Part shown: positions 1 to 11,115 of the stretch, in pieces
How the letters are laid out: every line of letters starts with the position of its first letter
Numbering within the stretch: position 1 is the stretch's first letter
Source: a virus
Lineage: Duplodnaviria; Heunggongvirae; Uroviricota; Caudoviricetes
Virus record (IMG/VR): IMGVR_UViG_2923302340_000003
DNA: 11,115 nucleotides
Reading direction: 5' to 3' (one strand)
Translations under genes and position numbers: made by a program
Notes under the pieces: model-generated
Seen by the model: only the letters and a program-made list of their open reading frames with translations
The model's database searches: none
What the model was told of the DNA's origin: nothing

Positions 1-762
1 ATGTGTTGTAAAATCAGTCGAAGCCTAACAAGTGTGAATGACCTTTTAACCATGACGCAAGTGTTCAATGTTTACTGTGATGAGTCCTGCCATTTAGAAA
101 ATGATGGTCAAAAAGCAATGGTGCTCGGGGCTGTTTGGTGTCCTCTCAATAAGAGGTTTGGTATTGCTAATCGAATACGAGAGATAAAGCTCAAACATGG
201 CTTGGACCCACGTTTTGAAGTCAAATGGACTAAGGTTGGGGCTTCTAAAATTGAGTTTTATAAAGATTTGGTGGATTACTTCTTTGATGATGATGATCTT
301 CATTTCCGGGGATTGGTTATTCCTGACAAAACTCAGCTAAAGCATGATGATTTCGATCAAAGTCATGATGACTGGTACTATAAAATGTATTTTGTCATGT
401 TGAAAACTATTTTTGAGCCAGGAAGTCAATATAGAGTCTTTATTGATATAAAAGATACTCTTGGTCATGAGAAAATACTCAAGTTACATGATGTATTATG
501 TAACAATGCATATGATTTCTCTAGGAAAACAATTTCTAATATTAAGAGAATTAATTCTCATGAAGCTGAGCAATTGCAACTTGCTGATTTATTAATAGGT
601 GCCCTTAGTTATATGCATAGAGGTTTGAATGAAAGTAAGCCAAAACTTTTATTAATTAACAGGATAAGAGAAAGGAGCGGCTATAATCTAACCCAAAATA
701 CTTTGCTTCGAGAGTTAAAGTTTAATCTAATGATCTGGCAATCTAATGGGGGATGTCGATGA
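1..762 (+). CDS. DUF3800-like protein, AT-rich accessory gene. ORF is open to the window edge; the likely true start is ATG at 52 (MTQVFNVYCDES...), otherwise the gene is 5'-partial
   Basis: Long ORF in an AT-rich block. A hydrophobic-Y-C-D-E-S motif sits a few residues after the Met at 52, matching my recollection of the conserved N-terminal motif of DUF3800 proteins (not verified by search). Stop TGA at 760-762. No clear Shine-Dalgarno before 52. Confidence 0.6.
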   Translation: MCCKISRSLTSVNDLLTMTQVFNVYCDESCHLENDGQKAMVLGAVWCPLNKRFGIANRIREIKLKHGLDPRFEVKWTKVGASKIEFYKDLVDYFFDDDDLHFRGLVIPDKTQLKHDDFDQSHDDWYYKMYFVMLKTIFEPGSQYRVFIDIKDTLGHEKILKLHDVLCNNAYDFSRKTISNIKRINSHEAEQLQLADLLIGALSYMHRGLNESKPKLLLINRIRERSGYNLTQNTLLRELKFNLMIWQSNGGCR

Positions 763-1244
763 GTCCGGTTTGGCTACCCAAGCAAATTTTATTAGAACAC
801 TATCAAGGTGAGTGGGAGGCCTACTTTGATAGTGTTTATCAAGCATTCCACCGCGATTTCGTTTTATCTAAACCAGTTTTTCGTGGCGTTCGATTAGGAT
901 TGAAACGTCATCCAGAATATGAAGGTAAATCAGCCACATTCTGGCATATGATTAGCACTGGAAATGTAGAAAGTGAGAGAGTGCCGGATATTCGGCGCTG
1001 CGAAAGAATTAGTTGGCCTAAGCCTGTTATAGATAATAGTACCGATACCTGTTTGAAAGTCTGGGCTGAGCCCAAAGGTAAAAATAGACGTATCCACATT
1101 TGGTTTGAGGATGAGGGATATCTGGTGGTTTTAGATGATAGAGGCGATTTTATGCTTCCATGGACAGCGTTTTATATTGAACATAACCATCAACGAAAGA
1201 AATACAATAAGAGATGGGAAAGACACAATCATAACGGTATTTGA
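753..1244 (+). CDS. Hypothetical protein (163 aa), translationally coupled partner of the DUF3800-like gene
   Basis: ATG at 753 overlaps the upstream stop (760-762) by 10 nt. A GGGGG run at 747-751 serves as Shine-Dalgarno. No recognisable catalytic motif. Confidence 0.6.
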   Translation: MSMSPVWLPKQILLEHYQGEWEAYFDSVYQAFHRDFVLSKPVFRGVRLGLKRHPEYEGKSATFWHMISTGNVESERVPDIRRCERISWPKPVIDNSTDTCLKVWAEPKGKNRRIHIWFEDEGYLVVLDDRGDFMLPWTAFYIEHNHQRKKYNKRWERHNHNGI

Positions 1245-1610: not shown

Positions 1611-1790
1611 TCACCGTCGTGGCCTGTCCGGTTTCCGCCACTGATACGGCCTCACATCATCATGCTGGCGGCGTTCCTGTTGCAGCACAACGGAAACAGG
1701 CGCTGAACACCTGTTAATTTTGCTTGCTGTTTGTTTGATTCCGGCAATGCTGCGGATCATCTCCAGCATATCGGCTTCGGTGATGGTCAT
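1611..1790 (-). CDS. Small hypothetical protein (59 aa, MTITEADMLEMIRSIAGIKQ...), absent from the supplied ORF track
   Basis: Hand translation of the minus strand: ATG at 1790-1788, stop TGA at 1613-1611. AAGGTG Shine-Dalgarno lies 8-12 nt upstream (reverse complement of 1798-1803). A hairpin with T-run follows downstream. Confidence 0.35.
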   Translation of the reverse strand: MTITEADMLEMIRSIAGIKQTASKINRCSAPVSVVLQQERRQHDDVRPYQWRKPDRPRR

Positions 1791-1819
1791 GATTTACACC
1801 TTAGGAAATCTTAGGGGGC

Positions 1820-2090
1820 TGGTTGACACTTTCCGGCTTAAGACCTTAATAAATCTTAATATCGCAGGTTGACACACTTGACACTTTTTCGGGAAAAACC
1901 TTAACAAAACTTAACCATCCCTGGCATTTCTAAGCATGGCAACTTGACACTTTTCGCGATTTTTTCGGCTTTTTGACGAGGTAAATCTGGCGCAAAGCCA
2001 GTAACGGCGGGGTTTACAGCGAGGTTGACACTTTTTCGCGTTCAGAGTGTAAAGTGTCAACCTGGCAAGCTGCTCAACTTGACACTTTTT
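1820..2090. repeat. Iteron array 2: seven copies of TTGACACTTTT(T)CG-like repeats (six direct, one inverted), interspersed with CTTAA/CTTAG short repeats
   Basis: TTGACAC at 1823, 1869, 1878, 1944, 2024 and 2079. Inverted copy GTGTCAA at 2054-2060. Most are followed by a T4-5 run and CG. The array sits between the HTH gene end (2095) and the small ORF start (1790). Confidence 0.6.
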
Positions 2091-2094
2091 GATG

Positions 2095-2632
2095 TCATTG
2101 ATGGTCTGATTTTTCCCATTCAGCCAAGGCGTTTAGTCCTGCCTCACTCCATGTGTCCTGTTCATCGGGACAATCGCTGGCAACATAGCATAGTTCACAA
2201 CGCAACATACGAATTGCCAGCCAGGCATTACCCCGCAAATTGTATTGTTCAAAGTAATGCTGCCCGTCGCAATCCTCAAGGCAGATAGCACCACCATCAA
2301 GAAATTGCACTTCCCAGCCTAATTCCCCGGCTGCATTCAGCACACGCTGCCGTATGTCATCGTCCGTTACTGGTGCAGGGATTTTACCGTCTCTGGCCTT
2401 AACTGCTTTCCAGAACTCGCCCCACGTCATTTCCAGCGTTCTTTCTGGCCACATTTCAGAAACTGCGTCTTTTCCCTGTGCTGGTGGGCTGTTCCGCTGC
2501 TCTGTCGCTTCCACATCGATTTTTTTACCGGACATAACCACTTCGCCTTTCTCGATCCAGTCGTAAACTGTCTGGCGGCTTACGCCTTTGTGTTTGGCGT
2601 ATTCAGCTTTACTCATCAACATGTGGCTCACC
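2095..2632 (-). CDS. DNA-binding protein with N-terminal HTH (Nu1/excisionase-like, SKAEYAKHKGVSRQTVYDWIEKGE) and C-terminal Cys cluster (CX3C...CX2C)
   Basis: ORF on the minus strand. GAGGTGA Shine-Dalgarno 5 nt before ATG at 2632. The track's 2661 start is probably an upstream extension. HTH assignment is from motif resemblance only. Confidence 0.6.
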
Positions 2633-2720: not shown

Positions 2721-2993
2721 TCAGTTACGCCAGGATGGCTGACTAAGCGTGGTTTTCATTACATCGTTGACGACCTGTTTTACGATTTCTGTGTTGGCTG
2801 TCGTGCTTTCAACATCAACAAAACCATAATCGCCAATTTCCACTGTCAGAGATTCCAGTTTCTTCCCCAGCGCATCAGGCAACTCTCCACTGAACCGGTG
2901 CTGAAGATTTTCCACCAGCAACGCCCTGAATGCCTCGCTGTTCTCTTTTTTCTGCCATAGCTGGCGTTTATCCACTCTGATATTTAATTTCAC
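2721..2993 (-). CDS. Hypothetical protein (90 aa), GTG start
   Basis: GTG start overlaps the TGA stop of the upstream gene in a GTGA arrangement. Strong AAGAGGTGA Shine-Dalgarno immediately upstream. Classic translational coupling. Confidence 0.6.
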   Translation of the reverse strand: MKLNIRVDKRQLWQKKENSEAFRALLVENLQHRFSGELPDALGKKLESLTVEIGDYGFVDVESTTANTEIVKQVVNDVMKTTLSQPSWRN

Positions 2994-3157
2994 AGTCTCA
3001 CCTCTTTAAGTGCCTTATCCATCAGTTGCCGGGCAATAACATGAATCGACGGCGCCACACCAAGCACAGATTTCTGACGCTCTTCGTCCTGGATACGTTG
3101 CAGGGCTTCAATCTGCCTCCGGGAAAGTAAAACTGGCTTTACTCCGTGACCTTTCAT
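2990..3157 (-). CDS. Small hypothetical protein (55 aa, MKGHGVKPVLLSRRQIEALQRIQDEERQK...), possible small regulator
   Basis: ATG at 3157 preceded by GGGAGA Shine-Dalgarno. The track ORF 2990..3226 has an implausible N-terminal extension. Confidence 0.5.
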   Translation of the reverse strand: MKGHGVKPVLLSRRQIEALQRIQDEERQKSVLGVAPSIHVIARQLMDKALKEVRL

Positions 3158-3189
3158 GATTTTTCTCCCGAATAATAACAACCACAACA

Positions 3190-3245
3190 ATTGCACAAAA
3201 TGAAATGATAGCGATAAATATTGCAATTAATGAAATGCAATAAGG
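3190..3245. promoter_or_regulatory. Two direct repeats ATTGCA-N4-ATGAAATG about 34 bp apart in the promoter region of the 55-aa gene; candidate regulator binding sites
   Basis: aattgcaCAAAatgaaatg and attgcaATTAatgaaatg, both read directly from the sequence. Confidence 0.3.
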
Positions 3246-3267: not shown

Positions 3268-3555
3268 TCACTGACTGCAATTTTTCGATCCAGGATATTT
3301 CCTGAATGCCTTACCATTGGGCTGATGTAATCCCATTCCGGCATGTGCCCGGCTGATGGTTTCGCGCATCTCCCCGAAATTATCCTGCTTTGCTGGTGGG
3401 CGTGCTGCCTTGCGGATACATTCCGCACGGCGCTTTGCCGCCTGTTCCCGTGCCTTGTCACCGTTCGCCAGCATAATGACCTCAGCCCACCGTTCCGCCG
3501 CTCTCCGGTACAGACCACGCGCTTCCAGTGCTTCCGCTTTGCTGTCGTGAATCAT
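3268..3555 (-). CDS. PerC-family-like transcriptional regulator (95 aa)
   Basis: The N-terminal motif AEALEARGLYRRAAERW resembles what I recall of PerC/Pch-type regulators. Start overlaps the stop of the upstream gene (ATGA). Family call is from memory, not searched. Confidence 0.5.
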   Translation of the reverse strand: MIHDSKAEALEARGLYRRAAERWAEVIMLANGDKAREQAAKRRAECIRKAARPPAKQDNFGEMRETISRAHAGMGLHQPNGKAFRKYPGSKNCSQ

Positions 3556-4094
3556 GCGCCTGTTTTCTCCTTTGCTGCCCGGCGCTGACGTTTGCGCTTC
3601 TCATTCAGCGCCACCAGCCGCGTTTCTGCGTCCTGTTGTTCCTGTGGTGTCACCTCGCCGCACGGCTGGCCTTTCAGGTCGTAGCGTACCCCACCAGCCA
3701 TTAAGGCGCGGTAATAGCGCGGACACTGCGCATAAGATGCCAGCGTCGCACGTAATGCCCCTGGCCCGAATGCCAGCCCCCTGACGGCGAGATCCTGCAT
3801 CAGGTCGTCGAATATCCCCACCTTAAGCGGCTTCGGTGCTTCCCGGCTGAATAATTCAGGCCACAACTCAGTGAGGCGGTTAACGCGCCTGCGGTTTTTG
3901 TGCTGGCGTTTGGTCATATGCCGCCACGGTGTCGCCCCTGTGGGCTTCTGCTGCGCTTTCTGGTTACCGGGCATCACTTTATGCGCCGATGTGGTTTTAT
4001 CCTGCTCCTGCGCCGCCTGCGTCGTTTTCTGCGGCGTGCCGTAAATGCCTTTAGGTTTTCTGTTAATGGTCAGCTTAGTCATGCTTTGCCCCAT
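3552..4094 (-). CDS. ProQ/FinO-domain RNA-binding protein with a basic N-terminal extension; true start may be the second ATG at 4082
   Basis: The segment LWPELFSREAPKPLKVGIFDDL...LRATLASYAQCPRYYRALMAGGVRYDLKGQPCGEV aligns by eye with the E. coli ProQ N-terminal domain (FPHCF...RPLKIGIFQDL...RVDLDGNPCGEL). Confidence 0.8.
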   Translation of the reverse strand: MGQSMTKLTINRKPKGIYGTPQKTTQAAQEQDKTTSAHKVMPGNQKAQQKPTGATPWRHMTKRQHKNRRRVNRLTELWPELFSREAPKPLKVGIFDDLMQDLAVRGLAFGPGALRATLASYAQCPRYYRALMAGGVRYDLKGQPCGEVTPQEQQDAETRLVALNEKRKRQRRAAKEKTGA

Positions 4095-4175
4095 CGTTTT
4101 TACTGATTGCTACGTTGCCCAACGGCACTGACACAACATTCTGTTTTCATTTTTAACATTCCTGATTTTTTAATT

Positions 4176-4560
4176 CCTCACCTGCTGCACAGTGAGAATT
4201 TATGAAGTTAATAACAATATGATTTTAAATGTATTTTTAAGTACTCACTTTTTAATCCTTATATATACGCAAAAGTGAGGTAAATAGTTAAGTTTTAGTT
4301 AATATCTTGCATGGTGTGTTTTTTAACCTACCTGTTATTTTATTACCTCATTTCTATTAACTCACCATTCCTCACTTTTGTTCCTCACTTTTTATTATTC
4401 TTGTTCTGCTCCTCAGTCGTTTTCTTTATTGTTGTAATCTGTTGTTTTGCAATGTGTTTTTAACTCCTCACTTTTTGACCTATATACAGGTGAGAAAGTG
4501 AGGAAAACAGGGATGATTTTTAAATATTCCCTGCCCCCTCACTTTTACGCCTCACTTTTT
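4176..4560. repeat. Iteron array 1 (probable replication origin): CCTCACTTTT repeats in an AT-rich region immediately downstream of the replication gene
   Basis: Direct copies at 4244, 4370, 4383, 4466, 4537 and 4550. Inverted copies AAAGTGAGG at 4272-4280 and 4495-4503. Partial copies at 4176, 4346 and 4361. The last copy abuts the rep stop codon. Confidence 0.65.
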
Positions 4561-5971
4561 ACAGTGGGCGCACATCATCACCGTCAATAGCGATTACGCC
4601 GTCACCTTCCAGCTTGTACAGCCAGCGCCGGAAGTTTTTCATCTCATACCCCAGCTTTTTCATGTCATCGCGCAACAACGGAATAGTGCATTTATCTCCG
4701 CGTTGCGTGCGTGAACGGATACAGCCCCATAGTGCGGCGTGATTCTCCGTCTTGTTCCCGGCTTCCTCGATGCGCTCCAGTTCAACTGGCGGACGGGGCT
4801 TATCCTCCAGCACCAACGACGTGATTAACTCCCCGCCTTCATCCTTGAAAAGCTCAACCTCGCGCAAATCGCAAGCCATTTCTTTCAGTTCCTCCGCATC
4901 CTTCATCTTGGTACATGCGATAACCAGGGCTTCACTGCCTGCACCTTCACGGCGTATCCGGTACTCTGCATCCAGTGCTGCACGAAACGCACTGGAACCG
5001 CGCGCACCCTTTGTTTCATCCTTGCCGGAATGGTGAATTACCAGCACTGTAGCGCCTGTACGCCGTTTCAGTTCGTCACATCCATGGACAAATGCCCCCA
5101 TATCCCGCGCATCATTTTCATCGCTGCCACCAAAGCAACGCGCCAGAGTATCCAGAATAATCATGCGTACAGGTTTACCCGTTTCCTGCTCAACCTGTCG
5201 GGCAGCAATAACCATTTCATCAACATCACTCGGTGCGGCCGGAAAAATTGGACGATTTACCAGGTACAGATTTTTCACCTGCTCACTGTTCACCAGTTCC
5301 CATGCCTTGATACGACGAGGAACACCGATCCCCCCCTCACCAACGACATACATCACCGCACCATGTACAACCCTGCGACCTCCCCACGGGATACCGGTAG
5401 CAACATGACACGCCCACGAACACGCAAGGAACGACTTATAAGAACCGCTCGCACCGTATGTGCTACATAGCGAATTAGCCGGAATCACACCCTTAACCAC
5501 ATAGCTAAGCTGTGAATCGTATCCTTCCGATCCAATGCTCATTGGTAGCGTGGTTTTTCGCTGGCTGTATTGCTCGTCAGTAAGCATTTCTTCGCGCTCT
5601 GCCTGTTCGCGGATCCGTTGCAGGTAATCGCGCCAGTTCTCCGGCTCCCGGTCGGTGATGCCTTTGTATAATTTCGCCTCCTGTACGCCAGCCAGTGCCA
5701 GTTTTTCAGCGATAGCATTGATCTGGATTGGTTCGATCTCCCCCGCGAGATAGACACGCGCAAAGCGGCGTTCATCGTCGACAATGCGGATATTCGCCAG
5801 GTCTGCCAGTTGCTTTGGCCCCAGGTAAACAGGTGGTACGTTATCGCCGTGTTTTCGTCCTTCGCTTTCAATCCAGTGTTGAGCATGGGCGTAAGCATCC
5901 GTCCCGGCAAAAATGATTACCTCAGTGAATTTATCCTTCGGCTGATATTTCAAACTCGGTGCGTTTTTCAC
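4559..5971 (-). CDS. Replication protein: N-terminal TOPRIM-like region fused to a RecA-fold (RepA/DnaB-like) ATPase; putative primase/helicase
   Basis: Walker A GASGSYKS and Walker B-like MIILDTL are present. N-terminal acidic motifs (FAGTD, IVDDE) suggest TOPRIM. The start is directly adjacent to the upstream stop. Iterons lie immediately downstream. Confidence 0.8.
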   Translation of the reverse strand: MKNAPSLKYQPKDKFTEVIIFAGTDAYAHAQHWIESEGRKHGDNVPPVYLGPKQLADLANIRIVDDERRFARVYLAGEIEPIQINAIAEKLALAGVQEAKLYKGITDREPENWRDYLQRIREQAEREEMLTDEQYSQRKTTLPMSIGSEGYDSQLSYVVKGVIPANSLCSTYGASGSYKSFLACSWACHVATGIPWGGRRVVHGAVMYVVGEGGIGVPRRIKAWELVNSEQVKNLYLVNRPIFPAAPSDVDEMVIAARQVEQETGKPVRMIILDTLARCFGGSDENDARDMGAFVHGCDELKRRTGATVLVIHHSGKDETKGARGSSAFRAALDAEYRIRREGAGSEALVIACTKMKDAEELKEMACDLREVELFKDEGGELITSLVLEDKPRPPVELERIEEAGNKTENHAALWGCIRSRTQRGDKCTIPLLRDDMKKLGYEMKNFRRWLYKLEGDGVIAIDGDDVRPL

Positions 5972-6258
5972 TTCTTACCTCCCGCAACCAACATTGCCCG
6001 GATTTTTTTAATATTCGTGGCTGCACGTCTTGCCACTGCCTGTTGTTTGTTTTCAACCAGAATAAAATCACGCTCAAACTGACGGCGCGGCATTACGCAG
6101 TCATATTCGTAAGCCTCACGGCGGTAGGTGATATTGCCTGGCGTAACGTGACGAATAACCACTCGTCCCCCACGTCTGGTGTCGCGGTAAATATCGCCGT
6201 GTCTGATTTCAGGCCGAGCGGGGCCGCTGGCAGTAAAGCCAGAATTTTTCTTTTTCAT
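5968..6258 (-). CDS. Hypothetical protein (96 aa), coupled to the replication gene
   Basis: AGGAAA Shine-Dalgarno upstream of ATG at 6258. Its stop is directly adjacent to the rep start codon. Confidence 0.55.
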   Translation of the reverse strand: MKKKNSGFTASGPARPEIRHGDIYRDTRRGGRVVIRHVTPGNITYRREAYEYDCVMPRRQFERDFILVENKQQAVARRAATNIKKIRAMLVAGGKK

Positions 6259-6262
6259 GGTT

Positions 6263-6463
6263 TTATTTTCCTGTCAGCAGTTCCGGTTTTATTTCCGCAC
6301 GAATACAAAGTTCAGAAAAAAATTCAGGAGAACCAACAATCTCATTACTTTTCAGTCGGCATTGTGATTTCACTTTCCCTTTATCCAGGTAAACCAGTAC
6401 GCGTCCGGTGAAATCATCTGGCACACTCAGGGTAATTGTCATTGTTGCTTGCTGATTATCCAT
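6263..6463 (-). CDS. Hypothetical small protein (66 aa) with one copy of an FTG-x-LV...G-x-V-x-S...RL module
   Basis: 8-nt overlap with the upstream gene. Shares a motif with the 121-aa protein encoded at 6456..6821. Confidence 0.55.
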   Translation of the reverse strand: MDNQQATMTITLSVPDDFTGRVLVYLDKGKVKSQCRLKSNEIVGSPEFFSELCIRAEIKPELLTGK

Positions 6464-6821
6464 GATTCACCCCCTGAATAACCTGATAACCGCAACTGGT
6501 CAGCAATTCGATAAATTCCGGCAGTGTGCCGAAACAGCAATCATCACGCATACGTTCGCGGGATACCTCAACGCCGTTTTCGTAGTGACTCACCATGCGT
6601 CCAGTAAAATGCAGATCATCATCGTGATGGCACGTTGACGGCTTAATCAGTCGCGCACGTTCTGCCAGCTCCAGCAATGCTTCAACACTTCCGGCAATTG
6701 CACCATCCGGCAGGCGATAATTACTTACCACGCGTCCATTCTCCACATTGACCAGTAGCTGCCCGGTAAATTTCTCATCAAACTGAATGCTGTTAAGGTC
6801 AGAAATTGACAGGTTATGCAT
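6456..6821 (-). CDS. Hypothetical protein (121 aa) with two tandem copies of the same module (FTGQLLVNVENGRVVSNYRL and FTGRMVSHYENGVEVSRER)
   Basis: Strong AGGAGGTG Shine-Dalgarno 5 nt upstream of ATG at 6821. 8-nt overlaps with both neighbouring genes. Confidence 0.6.
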   Translation of the reverse strand: MHNLSISDLNSIQFDEKFTGQLLVNVENGRVVSNYRLPDGAIAGSVEALLELAERARLIKPSTCHHDDDLHFTGRMVSHYENGVEVSRERMRDDCCFGTLPEFIELLTSCGYQVIQGVNHG

Positions 6822-7179
6822 GGTGCACCTCCTGGCGAATACGGGCGGCGAATACCATCACACAGCCATCAGGAGATTGCTGGCGTGCTTCCTGTTCGCT
6901 GGTGGCCTCGATGTGAATTACGCGCGGTTGTGCCGTGCTCAGGGCGATAAAACGCCAGATAAAATTGTTCTCGCATTTCTGAATAAACAGCGTGTTTTCT
7001 TCGCGCCCTTTCCATGTTGCCGAGATATAGCCCATGTCATTGAGCATCTCGCAGGCATCCACCAGCGTATCAGCGGCTACGTGTACAGTGTTTTTACCGT
7101 CAGCCATGCAATCACGGTGCACCGCCAGGAAGGTGTATATAAATTTAGGGTGAGTTTGGGTATGCTGTGTTCCAGCCAT
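6814..7179 (-). CDS. Hypothetical protein (121 aa, MAGTQHTQTHPKFIYTF...), first gene of the replication operon
   Basis: GGAG Shine-Dalgarno 9-12 nt upstream of ATG at 7179. The track's 335-aa ORF (to 7821) is an artefactual upstream extension that crosses the divergent promoter and the opposite-strand gene. Confidence 0.55.
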   Translation of the reverse strand: MAGTQHTQTHPKFIYTFLAVHRDCMADGKNTVHVAADTLVDACEMLNDMGYISATWKGREENTLFIQKCENNFIWRFIALSTAQPRVIHIEATSEQEARQQSPDGCVMVFAARIRQEVHHA

Positions 7180-7253
7180 AATCGTTACTCCAGTTAACGG
7201 TTTGGTTAGACGCCCTGCATGTGTTGCGAGCACTGCGGGGCGTCGCTCTTTTA

Positions 7254-7305
7254 GGTGTATTTCACCTTTGCTTTTTAATTTACTCACTGGTGAAATACAC
7301 TTCAA
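7254..7305. promoter_or_regulatory. Operator-like perfect 12-bp inverted repeat GTGTATTTCACC-N22-GGTGAAATACAC overlapping a candidate minus-strand sigma70 promoter
   Basis: Left arm 7254-7265, right arm 7288-7299. Candidate minus-strand promoter: -35 TTGAAG (reverse complement of 7299-7304) and -10 TAAATT (reverse complement of 7276-7281) with 17-bp spacing. TATACT at 7331-7336 may be the -10 for the plus-strand gene. Confidence 0.5.
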
Positions 7306-7366
7306 GCCTTTTTTTATCATTTTTTTTGCGTATACTGACATACACCAATTTTTAGGAGATCCAGAA

Positions 7367-7546
7367 ATGGCAACTGGTGCAAAGAACGCAAAATCACAAA
7401 TGACAACTGTCAGAATCCCACATGAAGTAATGGATGATATTGAGCAACTTAAAGAACCTGGCGAAAGTACCGCTGGTTTTTTAGTTACTGCCGCAAAAGG
7501 CGAGATCAAACGCCGCCAGCGTCGCAAGGCCAAAGAGCAGGAGTAG
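7367..7546 (+). CDS. Small protein (59 aa, MATGAKNAKSQMTTVRIPHEVMDDIEQLKEPGE...) divergent from the replication operon; candidate regulator
   Basis: AGGAG Shine-Dalgarno 7-11 nt upstream of ATG at 7367. Basic C-terminal tail. The track ORF 7202..7546 has an implausible N-terminal extension. Confidence 0.5.
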   Translation: MATGAKNAKSQMTTVRIPHEVMDDIEQLKEPGESTAGFLVTAAKGEIKRRQRRKAKEQE

Positions 7547-7767
7547 TTGATCAGCACCGGACGACCAGAAAAAATTGCATCAGTCGCGCCACCAGCAGTA
7601 TTTTTTGCTTTCCGGACAGCGTGGCCAACGGCATTTTGCAGCAAAATATTCTGCATTTCTGGCGTGCTGTAGAAACGGTGATCAGCGCCTTCACATTGAA
7701 CGAACTTGTCGCTAAAATTCACCCACATAGCAAACATCGCGGTGCTGTAGGTAATTCGTTCACAAAG

Positions 7768-7798
7768 GCGCTCCGGCAACGGGGCGCTTTTTCTTTTT
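7768..7798 (+). terminator. Strong rho-independent terminator (plus strand), possibly weakly bidirectional
   Basis: GCGCTCCG (7768-7775) pairs with CGGGGCGC (7780-7787) around a GCAA tetraloop. This is an 8-bp stem with one G-U pair, followed by TTTTTCTTTTT (7788-7798). Confidence 0.7.
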
Positions 7799-7813
7799 GT
7801 AACGGTCAGAGCG

Positions 7814-8614
7814 TTACACATGGCTGTTTTCCTCCATGCGACGGGCTAACCAACGCTGCGAAAGACGAATTAATTCAGCTTTCCGCTGGTGGTAGTCCTG
7901 GCCTAACTCAATCAGCGTGATATTGCTCTGCTCAAGGTAAGAAAGGTGCTCAAGCTGCAACGTGCTCATGTGGTCGCGTGGTTCGCCTGTGATGCCGTTC
8001 GCCTGCGCCCACTGTTTTGCAGTCATGCCACCCAGCACGATACGCGCCAGCATATTGGCTTCCGTGGTGTAGTGGTGCTGGAACGTGTTTTTACCCAGTT
8101 CAGCCCGGTACGCCTCCAGCGCGGCGCACATCGGCTTAAAGTAACTGGCAACGGTGATACGGGCTTTCAGTTCCCGGCGTAACGCTGCGGAACGAACAGG
8201 CGCTACCTTGTGTAGCTCCTCCTCGCATTTGATGAAGTACTGACGAACGGCGCGGCCCTGTTCGGTGCGTTCGACCATCGCCAGTTCTTTCGCCATGTTC
8301 ACGGTAATGATGTACTCAAGAGCTGTTTGCTGGCGAGATTTTGCGCTCACCGGATCGGGTCGGCTCAAATATTCAACAACCTCATAATCCACGCCTTCCG
8401 TGAAGCCGTATTCTTCAATGCGCCCCTTGATCCACGAACGGAAAACGCGACCTACACCTAACGCCTTATGCAACGCTCTGGCGCTAACAATATTGGTTTC
8501 ACACCCGCCAATAATGCCGGAAATAACCGGGATAATTTCGCCGAAATTTTGCAGATTCTGGTTTTCAGGCCGAACGAAGCCCTGCCCCTGTACGGGCGTT
8601 TTTCGCAGTTTCAT
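7814..8614 (-). CDS. Phage antirepressor-like protein (AntA-type N-terminal domain)
   Basis: The N-terminal region SARALHKALGVGRVFRSWIKGRIEEYGFTEGVDYEV resembles the AntA antirepressor domain pattern, recalled from memory. 266-aa ORF. Confidence 0.65.
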   Translation of the reverse strand: MKLRKTPVQGQGFVRPENQNLQNFGEIIPVISGIIGGCETNIVSARALHKALGVGRVFRSWIKGRIEEYGFTEGVDYEVVEYLSRPDPVSAKSRQQTALEYIITVNMAKELAMVERTEQGRAVRQYFIKCEEELHKVAPVRSAALRRELKARITVASYFKPMCAALEAYRAELGKNTFQHHYTTEANMLARIVLGGMTAKQWAQANGITGEPRDHMSTLQLEHLSYLEQSNITLIELGQDYHQRKAELIRLSQRWLARRMEENSHV

Positions 8615-8691
8615 AAAAACTCCTGCTATCGAATTAAGTTACTTTTTATTTGCTGGTGGATAGCTGGGGAAAAAGCCCCGTTGCTGTTTAA

Positions 8692-8919
8692 TCAGGCTGA
8701 TGTGTTTCGGCGTTCTTCCAGCCAGCGATTAATCTCTACCGCATCGAATGCAGTGCTTTTCTCACCCAGTTTGATGGGCTTAGGCATCTTCCCGCTACGC
8801 ACCCAACGATCGAGCGTTGATAAGCTGGTACCCAGCAATTCAGCCAGGCGATAGCGGCGGATATAGCCAGTTGCAGGGATTGCGGTTTGAAGTATTGGTT
8901 GGTTTTTCATATGCCCCAT
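8692..8919 (-). CDS. alpA: AlpA-family phage transcriptional regulator (about 72-75 aa)
   Basis: Motif RYRLAELLGTSLSTLDRWVRSGKMPKPIKLGEKSTAFDAVEINRWL matches the AlpA/Vis-type pattern. The track ORF start at 9003 is an extension. Likely start is ATG at 8919 or 8910. Confidence 0.75.
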   Translation of the reverse strand: MGHMKNQPILQTAIPATGYIRRYRLAELLGTSLSTLDRWVRSGKMPKPIKLGEKSTAFDAVEINRWLEERRNTSA

Positions 8920-9022
8920 TACCTTTGTTGTTGGTTTGTGATTCGTAATAGGGGCATTAAATAACAAATGAAATGATGTGTGTGTGAGTTTTAGAAAAAA
9001 CACTGTGACTTTTCTTATTTCA

Positions 9023-9805
9023 CTATCTAAAACGCTCTCGCCAGCTTTTCCAAGTGTTCTTATCTGGTTGTGGGATTACAATGCCTTTTTGAGCACCTAT
9101 TTGTGCAATTTTTTTATTTAACTTGTTAGGCGGCAAAGATATTATCTCATTGTCTGTTAATCCGGCAATTCTTAATAATCCATATATCATTTTAAATTGA
9201 TGTATTGTTAATCTTGGTAACTTGTGATTTTCTTTTTTTATAGTGTTGTTTATGGAGTAAATTGGAAATCCATTTGTTATTGATTTATAAAGGTTGTCAA
9301 TGTGCTCTCTGGTTATTAATAATGAATCAGGTGTAATCTTAATGTTGCCGCTTGTTTTTGCATGGCATGAAAAAATAAATGTGGGATTCGCAGTGCGACG
9401 TGAAAGCGGTATGGATGTATTCATAGAGATAGTTTTGTTTCTTACTATAGTCTCTTGAATATCAAAAACTCCAGAAACCTTTGCCTCAAAAATAACACCA
9501 TTTTCTTTTATTTCATCACTATATTCATGAATAATTATGCCAAGAGAGGAAATTTCTTTTTTGATGAGAAAAGAAATAAAATCAATATAGTCTTCATCCT
9601 TTGGCCATGTAAAATCACGATAACCAAAATACCCCTCACAGTAAGCATTTTTTATTTTTGTGGCAAAATTAATTCTGTTAATATCCTGCCAATGCCATAA
9701 ATCATCTATTTCACATTCTAAAATTTGAGCTGCTCTATCTAAAGAGCAGAATTCTAATGGAGGTAATTGTTTTTTTTGCCATATTGTTTCATTAATATTT
9801 GTCAT
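9023..9805 (-). CDS. AT-rich orphan hypothetical protein (260 aa) inserted between int and alpA; candidate cargo gene
   Basis: Uninterrupted ORF in a block that is clearly more AT-rich than the flanking int and alpA genes. Asn/Ile/Lys-rich. No recognisable motif. Confidence 0.65.
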   Translation of the reverse strand: MTNINETIWQKKQLPPLEFCSLDRAAQILECEIDDLWHWQDINRINFATKIKNAYCEGYFGYRDFTWPKDEDYIDFISFLIKKEISSLGIIIHEYSDEIKENGVIFEAKVSGVFDIQETIVRNKTISMNTSIPLSRRTANPTFIFSCHAKTSGNIKITPDSLLITREHIDNLYKSITNGFPIYSINNTIKKENHKLPRLTIHQFKMIYGLLRIAGLTDNEIISLPPNKLNKKIAQIGAQKGIVIPQPDKNTWKSWRERFR

Positions 9806-9861: not shown

Positions 9862-11115
9862 TTATTTATTAGATTGCGTGATGTCAGAACATATCATGTT
9901 TTCTAAATTCACCAGCAAATCAGTCCACTGTGCCAGCGCCGCTTTGCGCTCATCAAAATATTGATGGCGGTTATAAATGCCCTCTACGCCTTTTATGCGG
10001 TGGTTAAGGCATCGTTCAGCAACGATCGGGTCAACTCCCAATGCTGCTAAATGTGTTCGTGCTGTTCGCCGGAAGTCGTGAATTGTAAAGTTGGGGACGT
10101 TCGGCATTTCTGCTCTGACTTTTGCCAATGCAACAGGAAGGGTGCTTTCCTGGATGTGAGGGATCATTCTGTGCTGCATTTTTCTGGCAGGTAATACCCA
10201 TGCGCTATTGCATGAAAATGTGTGCAATTCTCGCAACCATTCTATGGTCGCTGGTGGTAATGGTATGTCGATAGCATCGCCATTTTTAGTTCGTTGTTCT
10301 GGTAGATGCCAAATCGCGCCATCTAAGTCGAATTCATCCCACCTGGCGGCGCATAATTCCATTTTTCTGACACACAATGCTAAGAGCAACTTAAAGGTTA
10401 ATTCGTTCTGGCGGCTGAATCCTTTGGCTTTACGCATGGCCTGAAAAAATTGGATTAATTCGTCACGGTTCAGCCAGCGATCACGAGATAATTCTTTCCC
10501 ACCAGCATCTGATACTTCAAAAGCTGAGCAGGGGTTAACCTCCAAAGCAAGGCGTTTAATACCGTAGTCAAATATTCGACGTGTCCACCGAAGAACGTCA
10601 GTAGCAATTGTTGGAGCGCCTCTATCAACAATGCTTTTAAGCATGGCATCAATATGGCGTGGTTTTACATCTTCAACCTTCATGTGGCCTATGGCAGGAT
10701 TTATGTCTTTATCAATGCGCCTGCGGAGAATATCTGGGTGTTTCCATCGGGGAAGTATTTGCCGTGCAAAGTATTCGGCGGCAAGTTCAGAAACATGCAG
10801 CGCGTTTTTTTCAGCTTCTATTTTTGCCAGTGCTTCGGCTTTACGCTGCTGTTTTTCTGCGGCTACGTCATATCCCAAAGCAACTCGTGCGGAAAGTTCT
10901 TTTGCCAGTTCCCTGGCTTTTGATAACGATAATTCAGAATATGAACCAATAAGCATGGCACGAGATTTTCCCGCCAGTTTATATCGAAACCGCCATGTCG
11001 GGGATCTATCCACCTCTCTATACCGGAGATATAGCCCACCACCATCAGCACGACCTTCGAAATGTTCTCCGGCTTTTATCCATGCGCGGATCTGCATATC
11101 TGTGAGTTTTGGCAT
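9862..11115 (-). CDS. int: P4-type tyrosine integrase (417 aa), apparently full length
   Basis: N-terminus MPKLTDMQIRAW...GGGLYLRY is typical of P4-family integrases. C-terminal catalytic motifs HDFRRTARTHL and EGIYNRHQY (Tyr nucleophile) are present. Confidence 0.9.
   Translation of the reverse strand: MPKLTDMQIRAWIKAGEHFEGRADGGGLYLRYREVDRSPTWRFRYKLAGKSRAMLIGSYSELSLSKARELAKELSARVALGYDVAAEKQQRKAEALAKIEAEKNALHVSELAAEYFARQILPRWKHPDILRRRIDKDINPAIGHMKVEDVKPRHIDAMLKSIVDRGAPTIATDVLRWTRRIFDYGIKRLALEVNPCSAFEVSDAGGKELSRDRWLNRDELIQFFQAMRKAKGFSRQNELTFKLLLALCVRKMELCAARWDEFDLDGAIWHLPEQRTKNGDAIDIPLPPATIEWLRELHTFSCNSAWVLPARKMQHRMIPHIQESTLPVALAKVRAEMPNVPNFTIHDFRRTARTHLAALGVDPIVAERCLNHRIKGVEGIYNRHQYFDERKAALAQWTDLLVNLENMICSDITQSNK

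Follow-up and report, generated by a model that had tools for sequence, protein, structure and literature searches.

To our knowledge, helper phages and packaging routes are known for a minority of Gram-negative phage-inducible chromosomal islands (PICIs) only. The Rpp/cos1 system of EcCICFT073, in which Rpp proteins redirect the packaging of lambda/phi80 (Fillol-Salom 2018, 2019; Murialdo & Feiss 2022), is the sole one to have been dissected, short of mapping its binding site. Headful pac sites of the SPP1 pacL/pacR type feature multiple TerS boxes flanking a central segment and do not need a sequence-specific cohesive-end site. In phage lambda, cosB (R3-I1-R2-R1) comprises several short sites in both orientations, which are bound by the winged helix of the small terminase Nu1 and are located adjacent to its gene. 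Site R3 occupies positions 49–64 counted from the first base of cosN, and the spacing between cosQ and cosN is 30. In the satellite P4, two separated repeat clusters are present, namely ori and crr, of which crr shares the iterons of ori and binds the alpha protein. For cos1 of EcCICFT073, the cosB part is what RppA needs experimentally to redirect packaging (PMC6739421), and the site R3-PICI was placed at bp 48–65 by Murialdo and Feiss (PMC9026076).

Here, a repeat array is compared with these systems. It is located at positions 1823–2088 of the window, i.e., the whole stretch of 11,115 bp that was analyzed, and adjoins a gene encoding an HTH protein of 175 aa.

Island Context and Distribution

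The window belongs to the EcCIRM13514 type of enterobacterial PICIs (yicC-dinD PICI). All conserved genes of the island are located on the minus strand, namely those encoding a P4-type integrase (9862–11115), AlpA (8692–9003), an AntA-like protein (7814–8614), an Icd-like protein (6814–7821), a DUF4222 protein (5968–6258) and an AAA_25 primase-helicase (4559–5971). These are followed by the origin with its CTCACTTTT iterons (4244–4559), genes for a ProQ/FinO-like protein (3552–4094) and PerC (3268–3555), two small ORFs (2721–3226), the HTH protein gene, the array and the very conserved orf59. Array and origin are the sole sizeable non-coding regions conserved in the island. Beyond orf59, cargo genes encoding a DUF3800 protein and a phrog_16230 protein are located on the plus strand (window 1–1244). 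Regarding the ORF at 6814–7821 (335 aa), the Icd-like cell-division-inhibitor model is matched by the last approximately 50 residues only. Icd-like is a separate gene of approximately 66 aa in Escherichia coli ABU 83972 and CFT073, and the ORF of the window is either a fusion or over-called.

In E. coli ABU 83972, an island of the window’s type occupies the site between yicC and dinD. EcCIRM13514 itself appears with the same site and layout in Table S1 of Fillol-Salom et al. 2018 (PMC6092414). Within the searchable literature, this element was encountered in a supplementary-table mention only, and neither a helper phage nor functional work was found. The array region was detected in 165 of 5426 complete E. 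coli genomes (approximately 3%), and the island type occurs in several genera, with mosaic replicons. Furthermore, a cargo hotspot was observed beyond the array, and in some loci before it, whose genes differ from island to island (window 1–1244; L001 9727–11715; L002 10800–14500; L012 11121–14054). Elsewhere, the cargo comprises an RNA-binding-domain protein, a SEFIR-domain protein, DUF4747 or a three-gene set with an ATPase. Genes of the hotspot are likely to represent anti-phage defense genes.

Structure and Conservation of the Repeat Array

Within the intergenic region 1791–2094, six exact copies of the R-type element TTGACACTTT were identified by matching over the whole window, five of them on the plus strand and one inverted. 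Allowing one mismatch, no further match was found in the rest of the 11,115 bp. Six copies were reached in none of 200 dinucleotide shuffles, the chance expectation being 1.05. Copy 1 (1823–1832, plus strand) is farthest from the HTH gene and is kept in relatives. It is followed on the same strand by copies 2 (1878–1887), 3 (1944–1953) and 4 (2025–2034), all of them included in the comparison of 34 arrays described below, and by copy 6 (2079–2088), which is situated at a distance of 7 nt from the HTH stop codon. The inverted copy (2051–2060) is part of two tandem heptamers, TTGACAC and TTTACAC, on the minus strand (2060 to 2047). Since this copy consists of two such heptamers in tandem, the basic unit of the array is the heptamer TT(G/T)ACAC. 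A truncated heptamer TTGACAC (1869–1875, plus strand), situated 2 nt before copy 2, counts as a seventh copy, and a degenerate TTTACAC adjoining the start of orf59 (1793–1799, plus strand) is a weak member. Array repeats are spaced 46–81 bp apart. The initial annotation had listed seven repeats with a ‘(T)CG’ tail. Their number holds as six exact copies and one truncated copy, whereas the tail follows TTGACACTTT in only three to four of them and one copy is inverted.

Among 34 distinct arrays compared, no variation was seen in the R elements and the A/T runs beside them, and the spacers drift, chiefly at 1975–2020, the distal part (copy 1 end) being less conserved. The same pattern, with heptamers kept and spacers varying, was obtained when the window was compared with E. 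coli ABU 83972. The inverted tandem heptamers at 2047–2060 and copy 6 together form a conserved AAAGTGTCAA-N-TTGACACTTT pair, and the TTGACACTTTACAC composite of the inverted heptamers is also present in the type-2 satellites introduced below. Moreover, a copy directly 3' of the HTH stop codon was found in Escherichia, Rouxiella, Raoultella, Buttiauxella and Pantoea loci. Regarding structured RNA, no Rfam family was matched in the window, and a blastn search of the array against 50,697 phage records (INPHARED) returned no match.

As the array contains six perfect TTGACA hexamers, it could also be read as a stack of sigma-70 promoters in which each hexamer serves as a -35 box. None of the copies is accompanied by an acceptable -10 element at 16–18 nt, five of the six hexamers run antisense into the HTH gene at its 3' end, and conservation in the 34 arrays covers the full length of TTGACACTTT, not the hexamer alone. 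In the range 1400–2800, no sigma-70-like site was found against 2.0 expected, and no intrinsic terminator was predicted. A promoter stack, about which doubts had been raised from the beginning, is highly improbable in the light of these results.

A second motif, CCTTA(A/G)nAAAnCTTA(A/G), is interleaved with the array in four copies (1799–1815, 1844–1859, 1899–1915 and 1920–1935). It is composed of two TTAAG-like half-sites at a distance of approximately 10 bp. In the distal half of the array, its copies come after R elements, and loci of Raoultella, Pantoea, Erwinia, Serratia, Scandinavium and Citrobacter likewise carry it beside such elements. Inspection of the motif by eye gave no match to an IHF-type consensus. 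Between copies 3 and 4, a dyad-like block AAAGCCAGTAACGGCGGGGTTT (AARCC-N11-GGCTT) was observed at 1994–2015, inside which ACTGGCTTT is conserved across genera (L006, L007, L009, L011, L012). This block is a candidate for the site of a second factor or for a cleavage site. It showed no similarity to known cosN sequences. A loose resemblance to the GTTACGGGGCGG flank of lambda cosN was seen, which is not significant.

Downstream of the array, orf59 (1611–1790, minus strand) was analyzed in 14 loci. Its variable columns are distributed as 5/5/5 over codon positions 1/2/3 and represent 8% of all columns, as compared to 33/25/65 and 23% for the HTH gene in the same loci. Being approximately threefold more conserved than the HTH gene and lacking a coding signature, the segment appears to be constrained at the nucleotide level. 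RNA folding yielded a z value of -0.29 on both strands, which is no better than shuffled sequences, and the segment is only a possible part of the array system. A hairpin followed by a T-run at approximately 1548–1575 (region 1545–1610) looks like the terminator of the operon.

Array Repeats and Origin Iterons

Two separated repeat clusters in a satellite are reminiscent of P4, and the array had initially been interpreted as a second iteron cluster of the ori/crr kind, to be bound by the island’s replication initiator. The underlying observation was confirmed, since CACTTTT is common to the array repeat and the origin iterons of the window, and the clusters lie 2.2–2.7 kb apart. The region 4140–4560 adjoins the AAA_25 primase-helicase gene on its downstream side and represents an origin typical of PICIs. 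Seven exact copies of CTCACTTTT are located at 4244–4559, and a copy with one mismatch brings the total to eight, in both orientations and around AT-rich stretches.

The full repeats differ, since the origin iteron CCTCACTTTT and the array repeat TTGACACTTT have only CACTTT(T) in common. Furthermore, replicons were compared in 40 related islands encoding HTH proteins at least 79% identical and carrying 5–7 TTGACAC copies in the array. Their origin iterons belong to at least eight families, at least seven of which are other than that of the window (including CTGTCTACC, ACTGTTCAC, AAAAGTGAGG, AAAAGTGGGG, GGGTAGACA and CATATCCCG), and the primases also differ among islands sharing the array, which itself is unchanged. 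E. coli ABU 83972, for example, has retained the HTH gene together with the full set of seven heptamers, while the primase is a different protein of 604 aa and the iterons are of the CTGTTCACC type. Since the array remains constant while iterons and primases change, the CACTTTT overlap with the origin is considered a coincidence. In contrast to P4, the two repeat families of the window differ and assort independently, and no AT-rich unwinding stretch is present in 1790–2095. A further point that could be cited for binding of the initiator comes from three unrelated AT-rich elements (L031 11679–11905, L045 1029–1255, L033 3944–4060), in which TTGACAC/TTTACAC/GTGTATAA repeats flank an AT-rich stretch beside a large helicase-like ORF. 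These repeats resemble origin iterons and are probably convergent sequences. A second iteron cluster is rejected on the basis of replicon swapping in the relatives, and the probability that the initiator binds the array is close to nil.

The Adjacent Protein and Its Linkage to the Array

The gene next to the array had been delimited as 2095–2632. Since all homologues start with MLMSK and RefSeq annotates the 175-aa form, its coordinates were corrected to 2095–2622 (minus strand). In total, 114 database relatives of the HTH protein, the presumed array binder, were found, all of them in Enterobacterales and nearly all annotated as hypothetical. Homologues are 35–93% identical overall, with the first 41 residues almost invariant and the C-terminal part divergent. 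Residues 1–42 match phrog_57 (E 1.8e-7), where the alignment ends at 42, and lambda Nu1 matches the same family at 1.3e-76. Based on these profile matches, the N-terminal winged helix is assigned to the small-terminase lineage of lambda Nu1.

In the AlphaFold model (pLDDT 88.8), a winged helix (1–45), a disordered linker (46–55) and an alpha/beta C-terminal domain with a predicted alpha-beta3-alpha fold were distinguished. The C-terminal domain did not match TerS, and the window protein differs from Nu1 in that the oligomerization and TerL-binding regions of the latter are absent. Foldseek searches against PDB and BFVD returned the small winged-helix domain only and nothing significant for the C-terminal domain, and a sequence search of the protein against PDB gave nothing relevant. 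Moreover, tblastn against the 50,697 INPHARED phage records yielded no match at E <= 0.01, which fits a specificity private to satellites. In Lelliottia wanjuensis (L013), two tandem paralogues and a fragment (6386–7552, 8162–9361 and 9971–10171) combine the invariant DNA-binding domain (MLMTKAAYARHKGVSRQTVYDWI...) with a fused C-terminal region of approximately 350 aa that is unrelated. No TTGACAC cluster was found near these fusion genes.

Linkage of protein and array was determined for the loci L002–L017, which were found through the HTH protein alone. In the 470 bp following the gene, the heptamer density amounts to 3.86/kb, as compared to 0.085/kb elsewhere (45-fold; Poisson p ~1e-37). 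These figures include three loci in which the array is located 1.6–3.6 kb from the gene; in one of these, defense-like cargo has been inserted in between, and in L012 the cargo lying between gene and array measures 3.6 kb. When IMG/VR was scanned for the inverted pair AAAGTGTCAA-N-TTGACACTTT, 65 contigs were retrieved, mostly of PICI size, and in most of them an HTH homologue adjoins the pair. Array repeats assort with the HTH protein family, not with the replicon. Judging from these sequence comparisons, the array very probably represents a cluster of binding sites for the adjacent protein.

Comparison with cos Sites of Phages and Satellites

Sister satellites provide the link between the array and known cos sites. 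The type-2 satellites (L026, L049, L056, L073, L077 and L079) encode a protein homologous to that of the window (hhalign 96.5%, 98 columns), with homology extending past the DNA-binding domain. L054 and L084 encode a full-length TerS of the Nu1 family (phrog_57 E 2.7e-23), which is 39–41% identical to TerS of the phages phiNP and BZS1. In both groups, the cosQ sequence GGGTCCTTCC is followed 29 nt on (start to start) by a cosN-like GGGCATTGCGCGCCGCG, by TT(G/T)ACAC at +50/+57/+64 from cosN, by more copies in both orientations and then by the gene. The Citrobacter phage phiNP shares cosQ and cosN with these satellites; GGTAACA follows at +50/+57/+69, and then terS. In cos1 of EcCICFT073 (L089 10559–10614, E. 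coli CFT073), GTGACAC is located at +50 from cosN, directly upstream of rppA. This heptamer is one base off TTGACAC and may be the core recognized by RppA. The sister satellites keep the geometry of lambda, with a cosQ-cosN spacing of 29–30 and the first site at approximately +50. Since the same heptamers are found at the R3 position beside cosQ-cosN in the relatives, the array repeats are R-type (cosB-like) elements.

The recognition helices of the corresponding proteins vary in step with the heptamers. Proteins of the window, the type-2 satellites and L054 have V/M-S/T-R-Q-x-x-Y-x-W, with R-Q-x-x-Y as the signature for TTKACAC, while VSRKTVTQW of phiNP TerS goes together with GGTAACA and VNRTTIRAW of RppA with GTGACAC. 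As in lambda cosB, the array comprises several short sites in both orientations, clustered beside a gene whose Nu1-lineage domain is predicted to bind them. It differs from lambda in the site sequence and in the absence of cosN and of a recognized IHF-consensus site.

Similarities to EcCICFT073 extend to the island as a whole. Both elements are enterobacterial PICIs of the order int-alpA-pri/rep-ori-PerC, and both have a satellite-private recognition sequence beside a gene for a Nu1-like winged helix, with the core GTGACAC at +50 and the helix VNRTTIRAW in EcCICFT073 versus TTGACAC and VSRQTVYDW in the window. However, cos1 comprises one site only, located at the R3 position next to a phage-type cosQ-cosN and upstream of rppA, whereas the window contains 6–7 sites, no cosQ/cosN, and an array that is downstream of and convergent with the gene. 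By whole-protein sequence, the window protein is not an Rpp, since hhalign to RppA gives 24% and the C-terminal domain is different. Compared with the Rpp system, the PICI context and an adjacent private site cluster are present, cosN is lacking and the gene order is reversed.

Searches for cut sites in the window and the type-1 loci were negative. A lambda-type cosN at approximately 50 bp from the first R element is absent, as are lambda cosN/cosQ, the phiNP-type cosN (including a search with an nhmmer profile), P2 cos and P22 pac. The cosQ sequence GGGTCCTTCC was not found with up to one mismatch, and matches with two mismatches are scattered and unrelated to the array. With pac sites of the SPP1 type, the array has the multiple boxes in common; there is no sequence or protein homology, and headful packaging is only conjectural for the window.

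The comparison also bears on regulatory interpretations. As a Cox/BldC/Xis-like regulator, the HTH protein could coat the repeats as an operator array and thereby determine how much transcription reads through into orf59 and the variable cargo, or control antisense transcription. This interpretation deserves consideration but is unlikely, because neither a promoter-like nor a terminator-like site was found in 1400–2800, and because the downstream genes vary among islands while the array is constant and is even separated from the gene by 3.6 kb of cargo in L012. It is also opposed by the occurrence of the same heptamers at the R3 position beside cosQ-cosN in the sister satellites and in EcCICFT073 cos1, and the spacings of 46–81 bp contrast with the head-to-tail sites of Cox, Xis and BldC, which are contiguous. 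Recombination-directionality (excisionase) sites forming an arm of the attachment site were considered as well, given that the modeled DNA-binding domain has an excisionase-like fold. Between the array and the island end lie at least 1.8 kb, which include variable cargo, AlpA is already present beside int, and it is cos sites, not att sites, with which the heptamers are associated in relatives. An excisionase/Cox-type array was rejected, as no tight head-to-tail sites by att were found, the repeats are widely spaced and one copy is inverted. Such a function has very little probability.

Proposed Role in Packaging

A packaging site, or a titration or regulatory site for the HTH protein, had been named as the fallback explanation in the initial annotation, and this option is favored by the linkage to the protein and the comparison of R3 positions. 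On balance, and with slight preference, the array is interpreted from its sequence as a set of protein docking sites that would mark island DNA for packaging into helper-phage capsids. Upon induction of the helper phage, the island operon would be transcribed and the 175-aa protein would bind the 6–7 heptamer sites. Its C-terminal domain, directly or via the small terminase of the helper, would then bring the large terminase of the helper to the island DNA, so that island concatemers would be packaged in preference to phage DNA. This scheme is drawn by analogy and follows the Rpp/cosB logic of EcCICFT073. Both the packaging role in an arrangement without cos and the partnership of the C-terminal domain with terminase are what we infer. 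Since neither cosQ nor cosN is detectable, cutting would be headful (pac-like) or would take place at an unrecognized site. The following observations stand against the packaging role: the cut site that defines a cos system is missing from the window and its type-1 relatives; the array is downstream of and convergent with the gene, whereas it is located upstream in lambda, EcCICFT073 and the type-2 satellites; and the searchable literature names no helper phage for islands of this type.

The missing cut site and the expansion to 6–7 copies would also be compatible with a decoy, i.e., a cosB-only sink that together with the HTH protein titrates the small terminase of the helper and blocks the phage, while initiating no packaging of the island. 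Rpp proteins are indeed known to combine two activities, blocking of the phage and redirection of packaging (PMC6739421). Nevertheless, lack of a packaging route would keep an island from spreading, and this type is in fact present in 165 of 5426 E. coli genomes and in several genera. Moreover, titration does not need a cis-acting array conserved this precisely. A mere decoy is therefore judged improbable.

Returning to the packaging role, a more specific and rather speculative proposal is that this PICI family starts packaging free of cos, with a Nu1-type domain, to which a new dsRBD-like domain is fused, assembling on the array to recruit the helper terminase. Equally tentative is the corresponding assumption that terminase would then cut headful or at an unrecognized site such as the dyad at 1994–2015.

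Implications

Recognition of cosB by Rpp is a known theme of PICIs; new in this island are the expanded array, its placement downstream of the gene and the lack of a known cut site. If packaging is indeed started free of cos, this would represent a new way for satellites to hijack their helpers, and phiNP TerS, the L054-type TerS, the type-2 protein and the window protein would constitute a natural series leading from a phage TerS to a satellite-specific packaging adaptor.

The comparison supplies a candidate for the recognition site, namely the heptamer at +50 from cosN, which is GTGACAC in EcCICFT073 cos1, TT(G/T)ACAC in two groups of satellites and GGTAACA in phiNP. A PICI type carried by approximately 3% of complete E. 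coli genomes has multiplied the R-type site and lost the cos cut site. The heptamers and recognition helices offer a testable site code for the packaging specificity of satellites, which bears on the spread of islands with defense and virulence cargo.
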